Assembly: GCA_033664045.1 (NCBI GenBank)
Contig: GCA_033664045.1_3674.1
Direction: 5' to 3' (one strand)
Source: a phage
DNA: 64,000 bases
The notes beneath the pieces were generated by a model. The model ran no database searches, was not told where the DNA came from, and saw only the letters and a program-made list of their open reading frames with translations. Position 1 is the stretch's first letter. Each line of letters begins with the position of its first letter. The translations under genes and the position numbers were made by a program. This document shows, in pieces, positions 12,735 to 62,835 of this stretch.

Positions 12735-13159
12735 TGAGCACACACCCTCGTTTAGTGGATTGGCAAGAAAGATTGTGGAAAGTATTTGACGAAGAGGCCA
12801 CCATACCTTTTGAATGGGGATTCCACGATTGTTGCACCTTTGCAGCTAAGTGTGTTGATGCCCAATACGGAACAGATTTTCTTTCTAACTTCGAAGGAAC
12901 GTATAAAACAGAGTTGGAAAGCAAAAGATGGTGCATGCTTCGTTTCAAAACTACACACCTGCCTACTATTTTTGATCTCTTTTTGACTCGACTGGATACT
13001 CCTAAACAGGTTCAGCGTGGCGATATTGTTATTTTCGAAGGTCTGAACGGCCTCACCGCTGGTGTGTTCTGGAACAACCAGATTTGGGCGAAAGGTAATA
13101 AAGGGATCTTTACGTTCGATATGAAAGATTCTATCGTTGTTGATGTCTGGAGGTATTAA
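12734..13159 (+). CDS. NlpC/P60-like tail protein (lambda K / GTA g14-like)
   Basis: PFEWGFHDCCTF (Cys motif) and RGDIVIFEG...AGVFW (His-region pattern); ATG overlaps the upstream stop (TAATG). Confidence 0.5.
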   Translation: MSTHPRLVDWQERLWKVFDEEATIPFEWGFHDCCTFAAKCVDAQYGTDFLSNFEGTYKTELESKRWCMLRFKTTHLPTIFDLFLTRLDTPKQVQRGDIVIFEGLNGLTAGVFWNNQIWAKGNKGIFTFDMKDSIVVDVWRY

Positions 13160-23431: not shown

Positions 23432-24475
23432 ATGACTAAACCAGTTATCCCTCTTGATATTTGGGCCAATCAGGATGTTGTGCTTGAAAATACGGGAGAA
23501 TTGAATAAGTCCCAACCAAAAAAAGAAGAGAGATTGAAAGGTTGGGATATGACACAAAGAGTGGCATGTGAAGTTGTTAACTTTGAACTTCACATGCTTT
23601 CTGCGTGGTTAAAGCATTTAACAGAAGATGTTGTCCCAGGATGGGATAATAGATTCTTAAGGGTCACTAATAATCTGGCAGACGTTCCAGACAAAGCTGC
23701 TGCACGTCAAGTTCTCAATGTATACTCGCCTGAAGAAATGGATGACCTTTATGTTGACAAGGCTGGAGACACAATGATCCAGACTCAAACTTTAGGTCTT
23801 CAAAGAATCGAGTTTGCATCCGCGTCAACAGACAATGCGGCGATATACACCACCATAACTCCAGACAAGACGACAATGGATTTCTGGATTATGGACAACA
23901 TCGGTGGTGCTGACGGCACAGATCTTGATGATCCTTCTCACCAAATAGACGGGTTCCGTTGGAGATTTCAACCTTCTGGTGGGCAGCCTGTGTTTTCGGC
24001 TATGAAGCTCAATGCTATAACTGCCAACCGTGCAAGACTGGCTATCCAAGGGAATCTTGAATGCAACGATGCAAAAAGTTCCTCTGCAAATGCCAATTCG
24101 GTCACGATACCAAGAGCCGCTGTTAACGGACAACAATCCTGCGGAAGCGCTCAAATAGGTGGAAGAGTAGATTGTAACGATAAAACCGCCAGAGGTCAAT
24201 ATGCAACAGTTGGTGGAAGAAACGTGGTCCGCAGGGTAAATGGTAGTAGCGCAGACAGTAGTGGTAACCTTACTATTCCTATGCCTAGTAGGGGTGTTGA
24301 AGATGTAAGGATAGCAAACCGTTTCAGAACCACCTACAGAGAATCAAGAGTATACCCTGGGCATGTAATGTGCTCCGGCAATTACGCCTATAAACACCCG
24401 TATCAGGGCGACTATTGGACTGGAGCTATTCAAAAATTTGTAAACGGTCAATGGATCACCATATCTTATGCTTAA
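23432..24475 (+). CDS. tail fiber protein, paralog B
   Basis: Termini conserved with 21377-22417 (KPVIPLDIWANQD ... FVNGQWITISYA); divergent middle. Confidence 0.55.
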   Translation: MTKPVIPLDIWANQDVVLENTGELNKSQPKKEERLKGWDMTQRVACEVVNFELHMLSAWLKHLTEDVVPGWDNRFLRVTNNLADVPDKAAARQVLNVYSPEEMDDLYVDKAGDTMIQTQTLGLQRIEFASASTDNAAIYTTITPDKTTMDFWIMDNIGGADGTDLDDPSHQIDGFRWRFQPSGGQPVFSAMKLNAITANRARLAIQGNLECNDAKSSSANANSVTIPRAAVNGQQSCGSAQIGGRVDCNDKTARGQYATVGGRNVVRRVNGSSADSSGNLTIPMPSRGVEDVRIANRFRTTYRESRVYPGHVMCSGNYAYKHPYQGDYWTGAIQKFVNGQWITISYA

Positions 24476-49361: not shown

Positions 49362-49844
49362 ATGTCAGATTTTATGTGGAAAGTAGGTTACGCAGCTCCT
49401 GAAATGTGTGAGGCTTGCTTTGTGAAAATAGGCCGCGAGGATATCGACAAAGTGATCCTTAAGTTTCGTGATGTAGCTGTGATCGGCAACCGAGTGCTTA
49501 AGCACTTAAAGAATCTGAAGCTCACCAAAAAGAAGTTCTTCGGACTTTTCGAAGAGAAAGTTGATGCTTGGACCCATTGCATTCAGGAAGCTAAATCTCA
49601 CTACAGTGCTATCGTTACCCCAGAACGGGTAGCCAAGATGGAAGGACTCATCAACAGCACAGAGTTTGAGTGCCTAAAGGCTGCCCTTGATAGTTATCCG
49701 AAATGCCTCAAGCACTTGGACAAGTATGTGGAAAAGGATGGGGAAATGTATCTCACCCTGGACGCATATTATGAGATGCAAGAAATTTTAAATTTAGATT
49801 TGACATTGGTATCCACCGAGTATACAATAGGTATCCGGGTTTAA
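49362..49844 (+). CDS. hypothetical protein
   Basis: RBS AAGGAGA. Confidence 0.45.
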   Translation: MSDFMWKVGYAAPEMCEACFVKIGREDIDKVILKFRDVAVIGNRVLKHLKNLKLTKKKFFGLFEEKVDAWTHCIQEAKSHYSAIVTPERVAKMEGLINSTEFECLKAALDSYPKCLKHLDKYVEKDGEMYLTLDAYYEMQEILNLDLTLVSTEYTIGIRV

Positions 49845-49849
49845 CACTA

Positions 49850-49878
49850 GGCCCTGCCCGAAAGGGTGGGGCTTTTTG
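49850..49878 (+). terminator. rho-independent terminator with GAAA tetraloop; exact copy of the hairpin at 60657
   Basis: gccctgcccGAAAgggtggggc followed by ttttt. Confidence 0.7.
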
Positions 49879-53447: not shown

Positions 53448-56225
53448 ATGAGTATGTATAGCTTCGATTTTGAGGCCTCTGGGCTTTTGGAAGATCCAGA
53501 CCTTTATTATCACTGCGGCCTGTTTAAAGCGTTGAATAAGAACCGTTTTATGCTGTTCCTTCCTCTGAATGACCGCACACACTACTCCGAGGAGGATATA
53601 GAGAAGGCTAAGAACTTTATTCTGGCAAAGAAAACTCTTTATAAGGATTTTGAAGTTCGCATAGCAGATTTTTCGGAGTTGGAAGGGTGGCTTACAGGAA
53701 ATTCTGACTGGTCACCCACAGCTTTGAACTGCCACAACTGCTACAGCTACGACTTTATGCTGATGGAGAGATTGTCCGGTATTCATTTTGATATGTTCCG
53801 TGATCCTAAGTGTATGGGGACTATCAACGACCACCAGGTTAATCTGTTTGATACATTGGCTATGAGCCGAATTTTGTGGCCTGACCGACCTTTGCCAAAA
53901 GGTTGTCCAGACGCTGTATTCAACCCGGTTACTAAGAAAATGCAGCCTGTTGGTCCTCACGGCCTTATGGCATGGGGCTACGCTCTTGGTAACCAGAAAG
54001 TTCAAATTGATGACTGGCGCGATCTTCCGTTGTGGAAGTATGTGGATCGTGTATTCGAGGACGTTATCATCCAGGAGCTGCTCTGGAAAGAGCTGGTAGC
54101 GGAATCAAAAGGTGTATTCTACGGCAAATCTGACATGCAGAACTTTATGTACGATCCTGCCAAAGAGAAGCCGAAAGGATTCAAGAAGATCACCTGGAAG
54201 AACGCATTACGTCGAGGCATGCTGCAGCACTTCCTGATGGAGCTGCAGGCCCGTCAGGGCGTATACTTCGACATAGATGGAGCTATTGCTTTACGTGACC
54301 GTTGCGATGCGTGGATGAAAGAAATCGCTGATCGTGTTGAACCACAACTGCCTTTAAAAGAGCTGTCAATGTCTCAGCGGCCCAAGTTCCCTGAAAAGCC
54401 GTTTAACCAAGACGGGACAATCTCCAATAATGGTTGGAAATGGTTAAAAGATAAGCTTGGCTATCCTGTAGACATGAGCGCTTTAGAGTTCAAAGCCCCG
54501 CCTAAGAGAGCATTTACCTCTACAGGAGATGTCAGCAAGATGGGGATAAAATGGTGTGAAGAGATGGGATGCAAAGACCCCGATAAGATGGCTGATTTCT
54601 TGAGAGGCTATATTAAGGGCACTTCCACACCACACCCTTTGCCTAAAGAGCTGATGGATCAGGCAATAAGTGATCTACAGCAGAAGCGAATGCCGGACTG
54701 CAAGATACCTATGAAAATCAGCAACCAGGACGACATTAAGCGATACCTGATCAGTGCTGGCTGGCTTCCGACAATGTGGAGAACTAAGGATGTAACTAAA
54801 GACAGCAAGAAGAAAGCTTTACCTGATGCAGATGTTGATGCACGAGTATATGCATATATGGACGAGCTTTTGGAGTCAGAGTATTGTGACCTAATTATCA
54901 ACTTCTGGAACAAAACTGATGCTAAGTTCCAGACAACCGTGCACAAGTTCCGAAGCTTTCCTAACTCCGAAAGGATTAAAAAGGAAGTATTCGGGAAAAT
55001 ACGTAGAAAAGCTAGGGCACTTATTACTTCTCCGCAACTGAAAGATACGTTTGGACACCTATGCCCAAATCTTGAAAAATTGAACGGAGAGATGGCTAAA
55101 GATATCGTCTTGTGGTTATCATTGCGAAACCGCAGATCGGTCCTTGATCCAATCAAGGAGGATAAGGTTGATACTGGTCTTCTTAATCACCCACGCTTGA
55201 AGATTGACCATAAGCTTCCTGCTAAAAGTTCTGGATTAACAAACACTTCCCGACAGAAACACAGTATTTGTGCAAACATGCCTAAACCATCTCCTAAAGT
55301 GGTTATGGGTAAAGAGATGCGTAGTCTGTGGGGTGTTCCTCCAGGATACTTTGAGATCGGTATTGACGGGTCCAACTTAGAGCAGCTTATCGGGGCTTGG
55401 GGTGCCTTTGAGTTCGACAACGGCTTGTATTATGATGTTGTAAGTAACGGGGACGCACACCAAAACAATGCTGAGGCATATACAAAAGTAGCAGGCAGAG
55501 AGGTGTCTCGTAACGACGGTAAACCTATCACGTATGGGGTTATGTACGGGGCACAAAAAGATAAAGTTGCAGACATGCTGGATATCTCTCCAGAGTTGGG
55601 GCAAAGGGTAATCGATGCGCTTTGGGATGCCAACCCAGGTCTTAAGGGGCGTAAAGAGGATCTGGAGAAATTCTGGGAAGCAACTGGTAAGAAGTTTATC
55701 TACTCTTTTGATGGTCATGCCATCTGGACCCGATCTAAACACTCTTTACTTAATGCATACCAACAAAATGGCGGTGCATCGTTGTGTGATTTAGTTGGGA
55801 TACTCATGCACCACCAAATGGTGAGGCGTGGGTGGTACGATGAAGGTGTTCGTCGTATTATCTATTACCATGACGAATATCAGCTTCAAGTACCTGACAC
55901 ACCGAAGTATAAGACTGTGTACACCTTCGACACAATTGAAGAATTGGAAGCATTTAAGGCAGAGCAGGAGGCCAAACTTCATGTGTTCGACGGTCATAAG
56001 TACAAAAAGGCACGCAAGGATGAAAACGGAAACGAAGTGGTTGACAGAGACGGAAACACGGTGTACGATCCTATCTTGAACGATGACGGAAAGCTTGAAC
56101 TTATCTGGAGTCCTGTGGGCGAAATGGTGGTACATTGCTTCTGGCAAGCTTCTAAAATGATGGGAGTCCCGTTCCAGATCACAGGTGAATACTTGTGTGG
56201 TCGTAATTGGGGTGATTGTCACTAA
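53448..56225 (+). CDS. family A DNA polymerase with 3'-5' exonuclease domain
   Basis: Exo I FDFEASGL, motif A GIDGSNLEQ, motif B RNDGKPITYGVMYG, motif C YYHDEYQL. Confidence 0.85.
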   Translation: MSMYSFDFEASGLLEDPDLYYHCGLFKALNKNRFMLFLPLNDRTHYSEEDIEKAKNFILAKKTLYKDFEVRIADFSELEGWLTGNSDWSPTALNCHNCYSYDFMLMERLSGIHFDMFRDPKCMGTINDHQVNLFDTLAMSRILWPDRPLPKGCPDAVFNPVTKKMQPVGPHGLMAWGYALGNQKVQIDDWRDLPLWKYVDRVFEDVIIQELLWKELVAESKGVFYGKSDMQNFMYDPAKEKPKGFKKITWKNALRRGMLQHFLMELQARQGVYFDIDGAIALRDRCDAWMKEIADRVEPQLPLKELSMSQRPKFPEKPFNQDGTISNNGWKWLKDKLGYPVDMSALEFKAPPKRAFTSTGDVSKMGIKWCEEMGCKDPDKMADFLRGYIKGTSTPHPLPKELMDQAISDLQQKRMPDCKIPMKISNQDDIKRYLISAGWLPTMWRTKDVTKDSKKKALPDADVDARVYAYMDELLESEYCDLIINFWNKTDAKFQTTVHKFRSFPNSERIKKEVFGKIRRKARALITSPQLKDTFGHLCPNLEKLNGEMAKDIVLWLSLRNRRSVLDPIKEDKVDTGLLNHPRLKIDHKLPAKSSGLTNTSRQKHSICANMPKPSPKVVMGKEMRSLWGVPPGYFEIGIDGSNLEQLIGAWGAFEFDNGLYYDVVSNGDAHQNNAEAYTKVAGREVSRNDGKPITYGVMYGAQKDKVADMLDISPELGQRVIDALWDANPGLKGRKEDLEKFWEATGKKFIYSFDGHAIWTRSKHSLLNAYQQNGGASLCDLVGILMHHQMVRRGWYDEGVRRIIYYHDEYQLQVPDTPKYKTVYTFDTIEELEAFKAEQEAKLHVFDGHKYKKARKDENGNEVVDRDGNTVYDPILNDDGKLELIWSPVGEMVVHCFWQASKMMGVPFQITGEYLCGRNWGDCH

Positions 56226-56274: not shown

Positions 56275-56559
56275 ATGGTAGTAGAGCCAACAAAAACATT
56301 TACATCCATGACCATTCCTGTTATTATGCAGGTGGAGTGTGTTCAGGTATCTCAAGTGTGGCCTGGCACCAAAATCCCAACAGGGCCTGATTTCTTTCAG
56401 GTTGGGAAAGTGTACAATGTCTGGAAGGCACCAGATTGTTACCCTTTCATTAAAGATGACCGTGGGATGCTGTGGTATCTTGGAAATGACTTGACACTGC
56501 ACCTTGGGAATGCTATTATTGCAGTATTCAGACTTAACAAGAAGGAGACCGATCAATGA
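56275..56559 (+). CDS. small paralog family 1 protein (94 aa)
   Basis: Track ORF trimmed to Met31, which has GAGGAGA upstream; shares FF.VGK.Y.V...IKDD.G..WY with the next two ORFs. Confidence 0.45.
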   Translation: MVVEPTKTFTSMTIPVIMQVECVQVSQVWPGTKIPTGPDFFQVGKVYNVWKAPDCYPFIKDDRGMLWYLGNDLTLHLGNAIIAVFRLNKKETDQ

Positions 56560-56783
56560 CGACTTTGGTTAAAGCTACCTTTGTAGAAGAAAAGATGACA
56601 GACCTGTCATTCTTTAAAGAAGGAAAGACCTACGAGGTTTATTACGATAAAAATCGTGCAAACAAGATGATTAAAGACGAGGAAGGGATTGCCTGGTTTA
56701 TCTCCCATCTGGCAAACGGTGAGTATCATATCTACGGAACCACCCTGCTTGCCAAGTTTGTAGCTGTTGAAGAGGGCCTATGA
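56556..56783 (+). CDS. small paralog family 1 protein (75 aa)
   Basis: RBS AGGAGA; motif FFKEGKTYEVYY...MIKDEEGIAWFISH. Confidence 0.5.
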   Translation: MTTLVKATFVEEKMTDLSFFKEGKTYEVYYDKNRANKMIKDEEGIAWFISHLANGEYHIYGTTLLAKFVAVEEGL

Positions 56784-56974
56784 AAGTAAAGTATCTGGCT
56801 GAGGGTATGAGTAGGTATTTCACCCTTGGTGAAGAATATTGGCCCTTTACAAGCAACGGCGATGTCTACGTGAAAGATAATTCCGGCACGCCGTGGTTTC
56901 TGCACTTTAATGGGCTGGGATACTCCATTTACTGCGGTGCAGTGAACAACACAACACTTGCAGAGTTTGTATAG
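56780..56974 (+). CDS. small paralog family 1 protein (64 aa)
   Basis: Motif YFTLGEEY...YVKDNSGTPWFLHF. Confidence 0.45.
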   Translation: MKVKYLAEGMSRYFTLGEEYWPFTSNGDVYVKDNSGTPWFLHFNGLGYSIYCGAVNNTTLAEFV

Positions 56975-56984
56975 GGGAGGCAGG

Positions 56985-57356
56985 ATGTTAGTAAAAGGTA
57001 CTCACACAGTCAAACAGCGTATTGAAGTTGAGATTGATGATTGTGAGCTGAAGCATATTCTACGGTCATGTTCTAACGTTTTGCTCCTTAGCATTCTTCA
57101 GGAGCGAGCAGAGAACGAGTTCTTAAATGCACTGGCAGGCCGTCCTGGTGACTTCTGTGTGCGTAAGCGTGGTGACAACAAGTCATGGCTGTGGGAAATC
57201 GATGCCGACTGGGATTACCACAAAAATGAGGGTATAGATGAGCCTATTCGTGAATTGACAGACAAAGAGGTTCAGATGTACAATGAAGTTTGTCATTGGG
57301 CAACACGCCAACAAATTTACCTCGACCCTGTGTGGCTGATTGAAAATAGTCATTGA
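56985..57356 (+). CDS. hypothetical protein (123 aa)
   Basis: Track ORF trimmed to Met10, which has GGGAGG upstream. Confidence 0.45.
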   Translation: MLVKGTHTVKQRIEVEIDDCELKHILRSCSNVLLLSILQERAENEFLNALAGRPGDFCVRKRGDNKSWLWEIDADWDYHKNEGIDEPIRELTDKEVQMYNEVCHWATRQQIYLDPVWLIENSH

Positions 57357-57432
57357 CAAGAAGTAAGATTAGATATAAGATGTTTCACACAAACAGAGCG
57401 TTGATTTTTAAATAACTAAGGAGACTGCCAAG

Positions 57433-57687
57433 ATGAAAATTACTTTGAAGCCAGAATGCGTTGAAAATGACCGAGCTTTTAAAGATTGCACAGTCGGTGC
57501 AATTTATGAAGCAGAGTTTTGTGAGAACCCTCTGGTAAAAGCCCTTCTGGAAGAAGGGGCCCCTTTATCACAAGAAGAGATCGATGAGCTGGAAAACTCA
57601 GCACAGTGCCTTACCTTTAAAGATGATGAAGGAGACTCTGTCTGGTGCACTGTTAATGAAGTAGTTTTTGTAAAACCTGAACATTAA
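57433..57687 (+). CDS. small paralog family 2 protein (84 aa)
   Basis: RBS AAGGAGA; KPECVENDRAFKDCT...FKDDEGDSVWCT is paralogous to the 57751 protein. Confidence 0.5.
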   Translation: MKITLKPECVENDRAFKDCTVGAIYEAEFCENPLVKALLEEGAPLSQEEIDELENSAQCLTFKDDEGDSVWCTVNEVVFVKPEH

Positions 57688-57690
57688 TAC

Positions 57691-57719
57691 TTGACAACAG
57701 TGATAGGGCCTAATATAAT
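57691..57719 (+). promoter_or_regulatory. consensus sigma70 promoter TTGACA-N17-TATAAT with -10 inside a 9-bp inverted repeat
   Basis: Hexamers at 57691-57696 and 57714-57719; gatagggcc (57702-57710) and ggccctatc (57720-57728) flank the -10. Confidence 0.6.
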
Positions 57720-57750
57720 GGCCCTATCAAAACGAAAGGGGACCACAGCA

Positions 57751-58023
57751 ATGACCAAACAATATCAACGAATTAAAGCCAAGGTTAAGCCAGACTATCT
57801 GGAGAAGGACTCTGCTTTTCGGGACTGCACAGCTGACAAAGTTTACACAGGTGCCGTCCTGTTGAACGATGAACTTGAAGTAGATATTCTGGGTAAAGAG
57901 GCCACTATTAAGGACGACCAAGGCGATTATGTTTGCTGCACCACACGTGAGCTAGAAATCTTAGAATACTTCGGTGAAATCTTCACCTCTCTTGATGATT
58001 ACTTAGACGACGAGGAAGCGTAA
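57751..58023 (+). CDS. small paralog family 2 protein (90 aa)
   Basis: Track ORF (TTG at 57691) trimmed to Met21, downstream of the promoter; KPDYLEKDSAFRDCT...IKDDQGDYVCCT. Confidence 0.5.
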   Translation: MTKQYQRIKAKVKPDYLEKDSAFRDCTADKVYTGAVLLNDELEVDILGKEATIKDDQGDYVCCTTRELEILEYFGEIFTSLDDYLDDEEA

Positions 58024-58412
58024 TGAAAAATATTTGGGATATTGATATCTTTGAAGCCTCTAAGCTTGACGGTGCTGATGGAGTGATTATGGTGTCTGAT
58101 GGCAAGGCAACACTAACTTCCGGAGATATCATCTATGCCTTGGACGAGCTGGCGCTTCTGAAGTCTACCGGTAACACTCTAGAGGAGCGTCTTCAAGGCT
58201 TCGCCTTCAAAGAAGGCACAAATACCGCCATGATGTGCACCACACGGACAGTTCAGGTGGGTAACGGTGTCTATATGATTATTGCTGTGTGTCCTAAATT
58301 CAGCAACGTCAACAAAGATGATGCTGACGCGGTAAACGATGTGGTTGTTCTCTTCGTGGGTGACGCTATGGCAGATCTGATGAATGCAGGAGAAGCAGCA
58401 AATGAAGACTGA
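58023..58412 (+). CDS. hypothetical protein (129 aa)
   Basis: TAATG-coupled; RBS GAGGAAG. Confidence 0.45.
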   Translation: MKNIWDIDIFEASKLDGADGVIMVSDGKATLTSGDIIYALDELALLKSTGNTLEERLQGFAFKEGTNTAMMCTTRTVQVGNGVYMIIAVCPKFSNVNKDDADAVNDVVVLFVGDAMADLMNAGEAANED

Positions 58413-58704
58413 AAACATCACCCCAGCAGGGTTCTTAAAAGTATACCGTGAACTGCTATATACTACAGAGGACAGTGTTCTGGAGTATCCAGAATATCTT
58501 TTGCTGTATAAGTATCTACAGGAGGCTGGTGAAAATCTGCCAGTTAATGCAGAAGGCGGTCCGAACTGGGTATACAGCGCATGGAGAAAGGTTGACATTC
58601 TCCCAGATCCAGGTAAAGATATGGTAGTTTGGCAGCTTATCAACAACATCGGGATTCCAATCTTCGATGAGGCTGTTAAAATCTATTTTGAACTTGACGA
58701 TTAA
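58402..58704 (+). CDS. hypothetical protein (100 aa)
   Basis: Track ORF trimmed to Met7, which has AGGAGAAG upstream; overlaps the upstream gene by 11 nt. Confidence 0.4.
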   Translation: MKTENITPAGFLKVYRELLYTTEDSVLEYPEYLLLYKYLQEAGENLPVNAEGGPNWVYSAWRKVDILPDPGKDMVVWQLINNIGIPIFDEAVKIYFELDD

Positions 58705-58721
58705 TATCAGGAGACCTTAAG

Positions 58722-58967
58722 ATGACTGAAGTAGTTGCTCGCGCAGGACAGAAAGTACGTTGTGTTGAAGTAGGTTTTGGTGGCAAAGGGTGTCAAAACT
58801 TGACTCAAGGTAAGGAATACGCTGTTATCTCTGGTGGTGGCGACGAAAGTATTGTGTTCGAGGGCCACATCCTGGATGCTGAAAACTTTGAAATCTTTGA
58901 CGACGATGGGGATCCGATCACCTGCCTGCTGGACGGGAATTGGGGAACTTTCGAAGTGATTGGCTAA
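58722..58967 (+). CDS. small Gly-rich protein (81 aa)
   Basis: RBS CAGGAGA. Confidence 0.45.
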   Translation: MTEVVARAGQKVRCVEVGFGGKGCQNLTQGKEYAVISGGGDESIVFEGHILDAENFEIFDDDGDPITCLLDGNWGTFEVIG

Positions 58968-60656: not shown

Positions 60657-60686
60657 AGCCCTGCCCGAAAGGGTGGGGCATTTTTG
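60657..60686 (+). terminator. rho-independent terminator with GAAA tetraloop; exact copy of the hairpin at 49850
   Basis: gccctgcccGAAAgggtggggc followed by atttttg, then an AGGAGA RBS. Confidence 0.7.
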
Positions 60687-62807: not shown

Positions 62808-62835
62808 TTGACATCTTAAAACTACAGTGTATAAT
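62808..62835 (+). promoter_or_regulatory. near-consensus sigma70 promoter TTGACA-N16-TATAAT
   Basis: Hexamers at 62808-62813 and 62830-62835, about 30 nt upstream of the ATG at 62867. Confidence 0.55.

Follow-up and report, generated by a model that had tools for sequence, protein, structure and literature searches.

A predicted promoter/stem-loop cassette of the PeSL type in an rV5-like phage

Promoter-early stem-loops (PeSLs), named by Arbiol et al. 2010 (PMC2839356), are intergenic cassettes that run from the stop codon of an upstream gene to the Shine–Dalgarno (SD) sequence and start codon of the gene downstream (PMC2839356). They are known from RB49/phi1 (PMC2839356) and from PST/T4 and nt-1/KVP40, which were added by Comeau et al. 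2014, who also linked the cassettes to the T4 internal-protein locus (PMC4122927). PeSL promoters are very strong (PMC2839356; PMC4122927). Promoter activity was assayed for two RB49/phi1 PeSLs by fusion to lacZ: the single wild-type clone obtained gave high expression, and most of the other clones carried −35 or −10 mutations, so strong were the promoters (PMC2839356). The stem-loop of one RB49 PeSL lowered lacZ expression to an extent similar to rrnB T1, mini-circle crossovers were mapped in or beside the stem-loop, and the structures blocked DNA sequencing reactions (PMC2839356). Arbiol et al. proposed that the stem attenuates upstream transcription and that the cassettes mediate gene shuffling (PMC2839356).

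A promoter placed inside a hairpin is also the arrangement of T4 e, soc, gene 49 and I-TevI, where distal transcripts fold and proximal transcripts cannot. These are reportedly translational sequestration hairpins with an internal late promoter, said to have been described by McPheeters in 1986 and by Gott in 1988; their 3′ arm contains the SD sequence or the AUG.

The DNA analysed here, a stretch of 64,000 nucleotides called the window below, is that of a Vequintavirus, an rV5-like E. coli myovirus. Phages of this kind serve in phage typing and have been investigated as biocontrol agents against E. coli O157. In the rV5 genome paper, with its 33 promoters and 20 terminators, the feature at 57691 does not appear; the searchable literature holds no mention of PeSLs in rV5-like phages. 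A preliminary description of the window had pointed to a consensus promoter at this place with its −10 element in the loop of an inverted repeat, and had read the repeat as typical of the operator of a dimeric regulator, or else as able to form a cruciform or an RNA hairpin at the 5′ end. As judged from its sequence and its relatives, the element is a PeSL-type promoter/stem-loop cassette, in a lineage where such cassettes had not been described before. The apparent operator is thus reclassified as a regulatory cassette, and a class so far described only in T4-like phages is extended to rV5-like phages.

Anatomy of the promoter and its inverted repeat

The region 56900–58500 is matched by 116 phage records over at least 80% of its length, with 80–99% identity, and the locus is syntenic in all 116. 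The element occupies a 63-nt gap between two small genes on the + strand. Their products, homologues of rV5 ORF220 and ORF219, are tandem paralogues (BLASTP E = 2e-11), and each gene has its own promoter. The features of the locus are the following.

57353–57381, + strand: upstream promoter TTGACA-N17-TAAGAT, counterpart of rV5 P220 ('Sigma70-type promoter; P220' in rV5, DQ832317; a predicted promoter in Gotham)
57433–57687, + strand: upstream small gene, 84 aa, rV5 ORF220 homologue, PHROG 12544
57685–57687, + strand: stop codon TAA of the upstream gene, 13 nt before the hairpin
57691–57696, + strand: −35 hexamer TTGACA, read from the sequence and the same in 15 of 15 distinct Vequintavirus variants
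57701–57710, + strand: 5′ stem arm TGATAGGGCC, within the promoter spacer, with pairing-preserving changes among relatives
57711–57719, + strand: hairpin loop TAATATAAT, 9 nt, which holds the −10
57714–57719, + strand: −10 hexamer TATAAT (TATAAT or TACAAT in all relatives)
57720–57729, + strand: 3′ stem arm GGCCCTATCA, over the promoter discriminator and, by prediction, the first transcribed bases
57736–57742, + strand: AAGGGGA, SD sequence for the gene at 57751, beginning 7 nt past the hairpin (a ribosome-binding site in the LL12 annotation)
57751–58023, + strand: downstream small gene, 90 aa, rV5 ORF219 homologue, PHROG 11936, function not known

As the preliminary description had stated, the promoter at 57691–57719 is a perfect σ70 consensus (TTGACA, a 17-nt spacer and TATAAT, a 12/12 match), and its −10 is flanked by a 9-bp repeat, GATAGGGCC at 57702–57710 and GGCCCTATC at 57720–57728. 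The inverted repeat is one pair longer than first noted, with 10 bp matching at 100% (TGATAGGGCC and GGCCCTATCA), and the palindrome covers −25 to +4 of the promoter. TTGACA-N17-TATAAT with at most one mismatch occurs six times in the window, against 0.37 expected, and the sole perfect instance with N17 is the one at 57691. The lead-in is AT-rich, with A or T at 22 of the 30 nt of 57661–57690, and consists in part of the 3′ end of the upstream gene.

In 64 kb, perfect inverted repeats of 10 bp with short loops are not rare as such: by our chance estimate, about 0.6 such repeats with loops of 3–12 nt are expected, and another perfect repeat, of 12 bp, lies at 23564 of the window. What makes the repeat at 57691 significant is its exact placement around a consensus −10 in a short intergenic gap, together with its fold energy and pairing-preserving conservation. 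A search of the window for the palindrome pattern gave a single occurrence, even when up to three mismatches were allowed, against 0.00 expected from shuffles. As + strand RNA, the hairpin folds with −19.6 kcal/mol (z = −3.45), and none of 200 shuffled sequences folded as well.

The hairpin lies just past a stop codon, where a terminator for the upstream unit would be placed, and it is GC-rich, as in a Rho-independent terminator that overlaps a promoter. It differs from such a terminator in its large 9-nt loop and in the tail that follows the stem, AAAACGAAAGG, which contains no U-tract, and a terminator scan of the window made no call at this hairpin; the clear terminators of the same phage have GC stems, tetraloops and T-runs. 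Efficient intrinsic termination by the hairpin is therefore doubtful. A terminator acting on the minus strand was considered and rejected, as the T-run stands on the wrong side of the stem and all local genes lie on the + strand. A search of 57300–58100 against Rfam returned nothing relevant.

The position of the element bears on the annotation of the gene behind it. In public records the start of the ORF219 homologue is given in three ways: at a TTG in the −35, at an ATG over the −10 and at ATG 57751. These annotations were compared over the equivalent of window positions 57691–57753 at loci L001, L004, L005, L015, L018 and L021–L023. In phage Alma, a 1-nt deletion between ATG 57718 and ATG 57751 puts the former out of frame. 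This deletion shows that the stretch between the two ATGs is non-coding and that translation begins at ATG 57751 and at neither of the in-frame alternatives, ATG 57718 and TTG 57691, which fixes the start codon of this gene by comparison among relatives. More distant homologues of ORF219 did not appear: tblastn returned only the same 116 Vequintavirus records, and IMG/VR gave two loci.

Variation of the stem within Vequintavirus and in T4-like phages

Fifteen distinct versions of the element were assembled from 23 phage loci, IMG/VR and metagenome contigs. All 15 have the same −35, and their −10 hexamers differ at position 3 alone, which is T or C. The core stem is variable at 7 of its 18 positions, compared with about 23% variable sites in the flanks, and the alifold consensus of the variants retains nine pairs. 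Five single transitions are seen in the core stem: A-U to G·U at pair 4, G-C to G·U at pairs 6 and 7, and C-G to U·G at pairs 8 and 9. All five give G·U on the + strand and none gives A·C, and each corresponds to A·C on the − strand; the background probability of a + strand wobble, taken from transition rates in the flanks, is about 0.55. Pair 7 is G-C in the window, G·U in SYGMH1 and A-U in rV5, a series that looks like stepwise compensatory change. The only pairs that are sometimes lost are basal ones (pair 1 in APECc02, the tenth pair in several phages), and in most Vequintavirus relatives the DNA palindrome is imperfect, with G·T.

Five wobbles out of five, with compensation at the exact partner, would be unlikely without selection for sense-strand pairing. 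Because changes are few, a shuffle control on the within-genus alignment was not significant alone (210/500 and 60/500), and the case for pairing is therefore based on the asymmetry between the strands and on the larger family described below. The G·U pattern fits a hairpin in sense-strand RNA, not a protein operator or a cruciform; a hairpin formed by the + strand as single-stranded DNA would account for it just as well.

With a 35-nt query, T4-like phages were matched as well. The same layout is found in Aeromonas phage GomatiRiver_11, Acinetobacter phage Kimel and coliphage RB69: a −35 (TGTACA or TTTACA), 4 nt, a 5′ arm beginning GATAGGGC, a loop with the −10 (CATAAT, TATAAT or TATAGT in T4-like copies), a 3′ arm ending GCCCTATC, and AAA. 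Each of the three copies is intergenic and lies 5′ of a small gene, that of RB69 upstream of ORF135c and that of Kimel upstream of orf037. The T4-like hairpins with GATAGG/CCTATC arms thus keep the register of the 57691 element, with the −35, 4–5 nt, a stem of 9–10 bp and the −10 in the loop, and their 3′ arm likewise lies over the discriminator and start before running into AAA. The outer stem sequence of the 57691 element is identical to those of RB69, Kimel and GomatiRiver, but its −35 is TTGACA instead of (G)TTTACA, its stem is 1 bp shorter and its loop 1 nt longer.

A 44-nt Kimel element used as a query gave 834 matches, spread over 377 phage records. Most of these records are T4-like phages, whose hosts are Escherichia, Acinetobacter, Enterobacter, Aeromonas, Shigella and Klebsiella; among the matches listed, most T4-like records have 2–5 places. 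Members from IMG/VR, in which the outer five stem pairs were fixed by the search pattern, have inner stems such as GGACTA/TAGTCC, GGTTCA/TGAACC and GGGTA/TACCC. Of the 180 core cells in 20 family members, 179 are paired when read as + strand RNA and 167 when read as − strand RNA, and the pairs found at positions 7 to 9 are GC/AU/UA/GU, CG/UA/UG and CG/UA/AU/UG, respectively. Among 11 T4-like copies taken alone, 100% of the cells are paired, with a covariation of 0.369 versus 0.157 in shuffles, none of 500 of which reached the observed value. Taken with the sense-strand wobbles, this covariation is comparative evidence that the stem functions in single-stranded form, RNA being the likeliest. 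The genes downstream of the family copies are unrelated (PHROGs 11936, 3723 and 1507, or none).

A covariance model, R1, was built from the 11 T4-like copies alone, with no Vequintavirus sequence included. In the 64-kb window it matches 57691–57739 on the + strand over its full length (model positions 1–49) with 35.6 bits and E = 6e-5, and this is the only match with E < 0.1. In the first 100 kb of T4, R1 finds three sites: the first immediately precedes ipI, the second separates gene 41 from dmd, and the third is upstream of mobD.2. Their stems, GATGAGGTAG/TTACCTCATC, GACAAGACTA/TAGTCTTGTC and GACAAGATTA/TAATCTTGTC, are unlike GATAGG and equally well paired; the T4 copies thus differ from the 57691 element in their outer stem sequences, the arms being replaced by GACAAG/CTTGTC or GATGAG/CTCATC with pairing retained. 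A regular expression for the GATAGG subfamily found nothing in the first 50 kb of T4, and the covariance model was needed. Since the T4 stems differ in sequence and yet pair, the wide family keeps structure and register with the promoter, the GATAGG stem being the mark of one subfamily within it.

Pattern searches of IMG/VR were less specific. The exact pattern GATAGGGCC-N6-14-GGCCCTATC gave six matches there, all unrelated terminator-like hairpins at about chance level, and a looser anchored pattern gave mostly chance matches, which were filtered by eye. Two giant contigs of more than 700 kb, 3300024981_000255 and 3300024981_000112, carry an unrelated hairpin, TACATGTT GATAGATTCCTC....GAGGAATCTATC AAAT, every ~430–860 bp; this repeat (L078, L082, L087, L091, L105 and others) was picked up only through its shared GATAG/CTATC ends. 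In T4 (L165), a hairpin on the − strand at 13131–13159, GATAGCTTCTGAAGTATACGGAGGCTATC, includes a GGAGG and ends right next to an ATG where modB meets modA.2. By its appearance it sequesters an SD sequence and has no relation to the promoter hairpins.

Set beside the PeSLs of T4-like phages, the 57691 element shares the AT-rich lead-in, the near-perfect σ70 promoter (TTGACA-N17-TATAAT, by sequence), the stable stem-loop over the −10 (here a 10-bp stem enclosing it) and the tolerance of G·T pairs. It also shares the intergenic position, with an upstream stop codon and the SD sequence and start codon of a small gene of no known function downstream, and the same cassette stands before unrelated genes elsewhere. 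It differs in that its host is a Vequintavirus and not a T4-like phage, and in that one copy of the stem type is present per genome, not ~50. Many copies in variable regions, another mark of PeSLs, were thus not found: blastn gave one element per Vequintavirus genome and R1 one match in 64 kb. Other promoters of the window have only weak, non-significant inverted repeats, in contrast to the multi-copy T4-like genomes; a −10 in a loop was sought there, and the 6-bp repeat at 56491 was no better than shuffles (z = 0.13), while P220 has no stem. With a single copy and a locus present in all 116 related records, the repeated, recombinogenic side of PeSLs is not seen here, nor is any indel or gene swap at the site within the genus. 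As to gene replacement between related phages, the locus is syntenic throughout those records, whereas in T4-like phages the cassette precedes unrelated genes, the flanking genes here are tandem paralogues, and the neighbouring P220 of phage JEP1 has a patch with a stem of its own. The 57691 element also lacks a U-tract, and the terminator activity reported for PeSLs is that of one RB49 stem-loop.

Proposed function and alternative readings

The element is probably a strong σ70-type early promoter joined to a sense-strand hairpin that would act on read-through RNA, as in PeSLs. A working σ70-type promoter at 57691 is very probable, given the invariant −35, the −10 of TATAAT or TACAAT in all 15 variants, the annotation of a predicted promoter exactly at this element in the Gotham record, and the lacZ fusions of RB49/phi1; the rV5 record annotates P220 but not the 57691 promoter, the −10 of which is TACAAT in rV5. 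At the DNA level, this promoter would drive the gene at 57751 and the genes behind it. Transcription is predicted to start at about A57726, from the usual 7-nt distance to the −10, and thus inside the 3′ arm. The element's own mRNA would consequently form no hairpin: it would carry only ~4 nt of the stem, without the 5′ arm, and have an open 25-nt leader with a free SD sequence. The nearest source of RNA containing the whole hairpin would be the P220 counterpart at 57353. In read-through RNA from there and beyond, the spacer could pair with the discriminator/start region in a GC-rich hairpin of 9–10 bp just past the stop codon of the upstream gene. Acting on the upstream transcript, this hairpin may attenuate or terminate it, or give it a nuclease-resistant 3′ end, and so insulate the two transcription units from each other.

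If it is active as predicted, the element offers phage engineering a compact, strong, self-insulating promoter unit. The presence of the same cassette before unrelated genes in two unrelated lineages also supports the view that the mobility and expression of new small genes are aided by cassettes of this kind.

A related possibility, which we consider rather unlikely, is that the GATAGG...CCTATC hairpin is a sequence-specific signal in RNA or single-stranded DNA for a shared host or phage factor, and that the unit is a mobile cassette crossing between Straboviridae and Vequintavirinae. Such a cassette would bring ready-made expression and insulation signals to new small genes, and the factor that reads it would have to be common to gamma-proteobacterial hosts or carried by the phages.

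We assign a similarly low probability to a function at the level of DNA, in which the element would be a recombination hot spot or mobility signal of the kind envisaged in the PeSL 'mini-circle' model, its hairpin forming in single-stranded DNA. The mapping of mini-circle crossovers in or next to PeSL stem-loops (PMC2839356) speaks for such a signal, as do the recurrence of the cassette before unrelated genes in two unrelated phage lineages and the paralogy of the flanking genes with their separate promoters, and G·T wobbles are tolerated in DNA hairpins too. However, the element is single-copy in Vequintavirus and so has no partner for intragenomic exchange, the synteny of the locus extends to 116 of 116 related records, homologous recombination requires sequence identity and not a hairpin, and the wobbles, being asymmetric between the strands, speak for the sense strand that is transcribed. 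A recombination signal is not exclusive of a promoter with a hairpin acting on read-through RNA.

We regard it as improbable that the hairpin instead controls the gene at 57751 when this is carried on read-through RNA, whether by protecting the 5′ end of a processed transcript as a stem-loop or by modulating the access of ribosomes. The element would then be a device of the T4 e/soc/I-TevI type, good translation being reserved for transcripts that start at the internal promoter. The promoter inside the hairpin, with proximal transcripts lacking the 5′ arm, is indeed the T4 arrangement, and 21 nt separate the end of the hairpin from the start codon, which places it at the 5′ edge of a ribosome footprint. 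Yet neither the SD sequence (57736–57742, beginning 7 nt past the stem) nor AUG 57751 is part of the stem, and the MFE and centroid folds leave both unpaired, in contrast to T4 e, soc, gene 49 and I-TevI, whose 3′ arm holds one or the other, and the 57691 promoter is of the σ70 type and not late. The in-frame AUG that the hairpin does cover, at 57718, is not the real start, in view of the Alma frameshift. A three-part switch, in which the 3′ arm would pair alternatively with the SD region, was rejected: this region reads GGGGA, GGAGA, GGGTA or GG-GA in relatives, and varies without keeping the pairing.

That a dimeric phage or host regulator binds GATAGGGCC-N9-GGCCCTATC as a DNA operator across the −10 and the start, repressing the promoter, seems very improbable. 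A perfect palindrome spanning −25 to +4 of a consensus promoter invites this reading, and many phages of the subfamily have kept the outer half-sites, GATAGG/CCTATC. Purifying selection on the half-sites, symmetry and further sites would be expected of an operator, but the arms vary as fast as the flanks, most Vequintavirus relatives have an imperfect G·T palindrome, and the single changes are all tolerated in sense RNA and none is reciprocal. The inner pairs covary freely, and in T4 even the outer arms are replaced with pairing kept. The search for other sites that the preliminary description had proposed yielded one copy per genome, and the half-site is not enriched (8 found, 8.4 expected). 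The family spans phages of E. coli, Acinetobacter and Aeromonas in two unrelated lineages, with no regulator identified that is common to all. The half-sites are 18–19 bp apart from centre to centre, a spacing unusual for helix-turn-helix dimers.

A palindrome without function, or a supercoil-driven cruciform that tunes promoter melting, is scarcely credible: the number of such repeats expected by chance in 64 kb is not negligible, but comparative data disfavour chance, pairing being kept in 15 genus variants and hundreds of T4-like copies with covariation, and in a cruciform both strands must fold, whereas the − strand has A·C mismatches in most relatives and arms of 9–10 bp with a 9-nt loop extrude poorly. 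The operator and the cruciform of the preliminary description are thus not upheld. Its RNA hairpin survives in part, in that the palindrome appears to be functional as a hairpin, but not at the 5′ end of the element's own transcript, the predicted start lying inside the 3′ arm. For its suggestion that the site is a switch point between early and middle transcription, we found no evidence.

Further promoters, genes and records around the locus

A second perfect consensus in the window, TTGACA-N16-TATAAT at 62808–62835, is the counterpart of rV5 P205. The gene that follows it is annotated for similarity with an RB49 protein, and the promoter has a weak AT-rich inverted repeat, AAGAT/ATCTT, over its −35. 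An identical 22-nt terminator hairpin, GCCCTGCCCGAAAGGGTGGGGC, is present twice on the + strand, at 49851–49872 and at 60658–60679; the first copy stands only ~20 nt downstream of a strong promoter-like sequence, TTGACA-N17-TACAAT, at 49800.

In phage JEP1, a patch at the P220 promoter (L005 154–200, equivalent to window 57353–57400) differs at about half of the positions, both in the spacer and in the 5 nt that follow the −10. The patch creates a stem of its own, GGGGTA/TACCCC, around the −10, with an MFE of −14.4 kcal/mol compared with −4.5 kcal/mol in the window, although with z of only −1.6. The same architecture appears to have arisen, or to have been swapped in, with an unrelated stem.

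The two genes that flank the element belong to a run of small + strand genes at 56556–58967 (56556–56783, 56780–56974, 57433–57687, 57751–58023 and possibly 58722–58967). Genes of this run share short motifs, for example KDD.G or KDN.G followed by an aromatic or cysteine residue, and the run looks like a tandemly expanded family of no known function. Upstream of it, the DNA polymerase at 53448–56225 is one continuous ORF of 925 aa in the window and a 2778-nt CDS in Gotham. The rV5 record splits this stretch (L001 1975–4926) into ORF228, the polymerase, and ORFs 227, 226 and 225, which probably reflects frameshift errors or over-annotation in the older record. Finally, 16 GenBank records labelled 'Campylobacter phage' (MG0656xx; some of them UNVERIFIED and unannotated) are ~90–98% identical to the E. 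coli rV5-like phage described here across the locus, which suggests that they represent mislabelled or contaminating phages.
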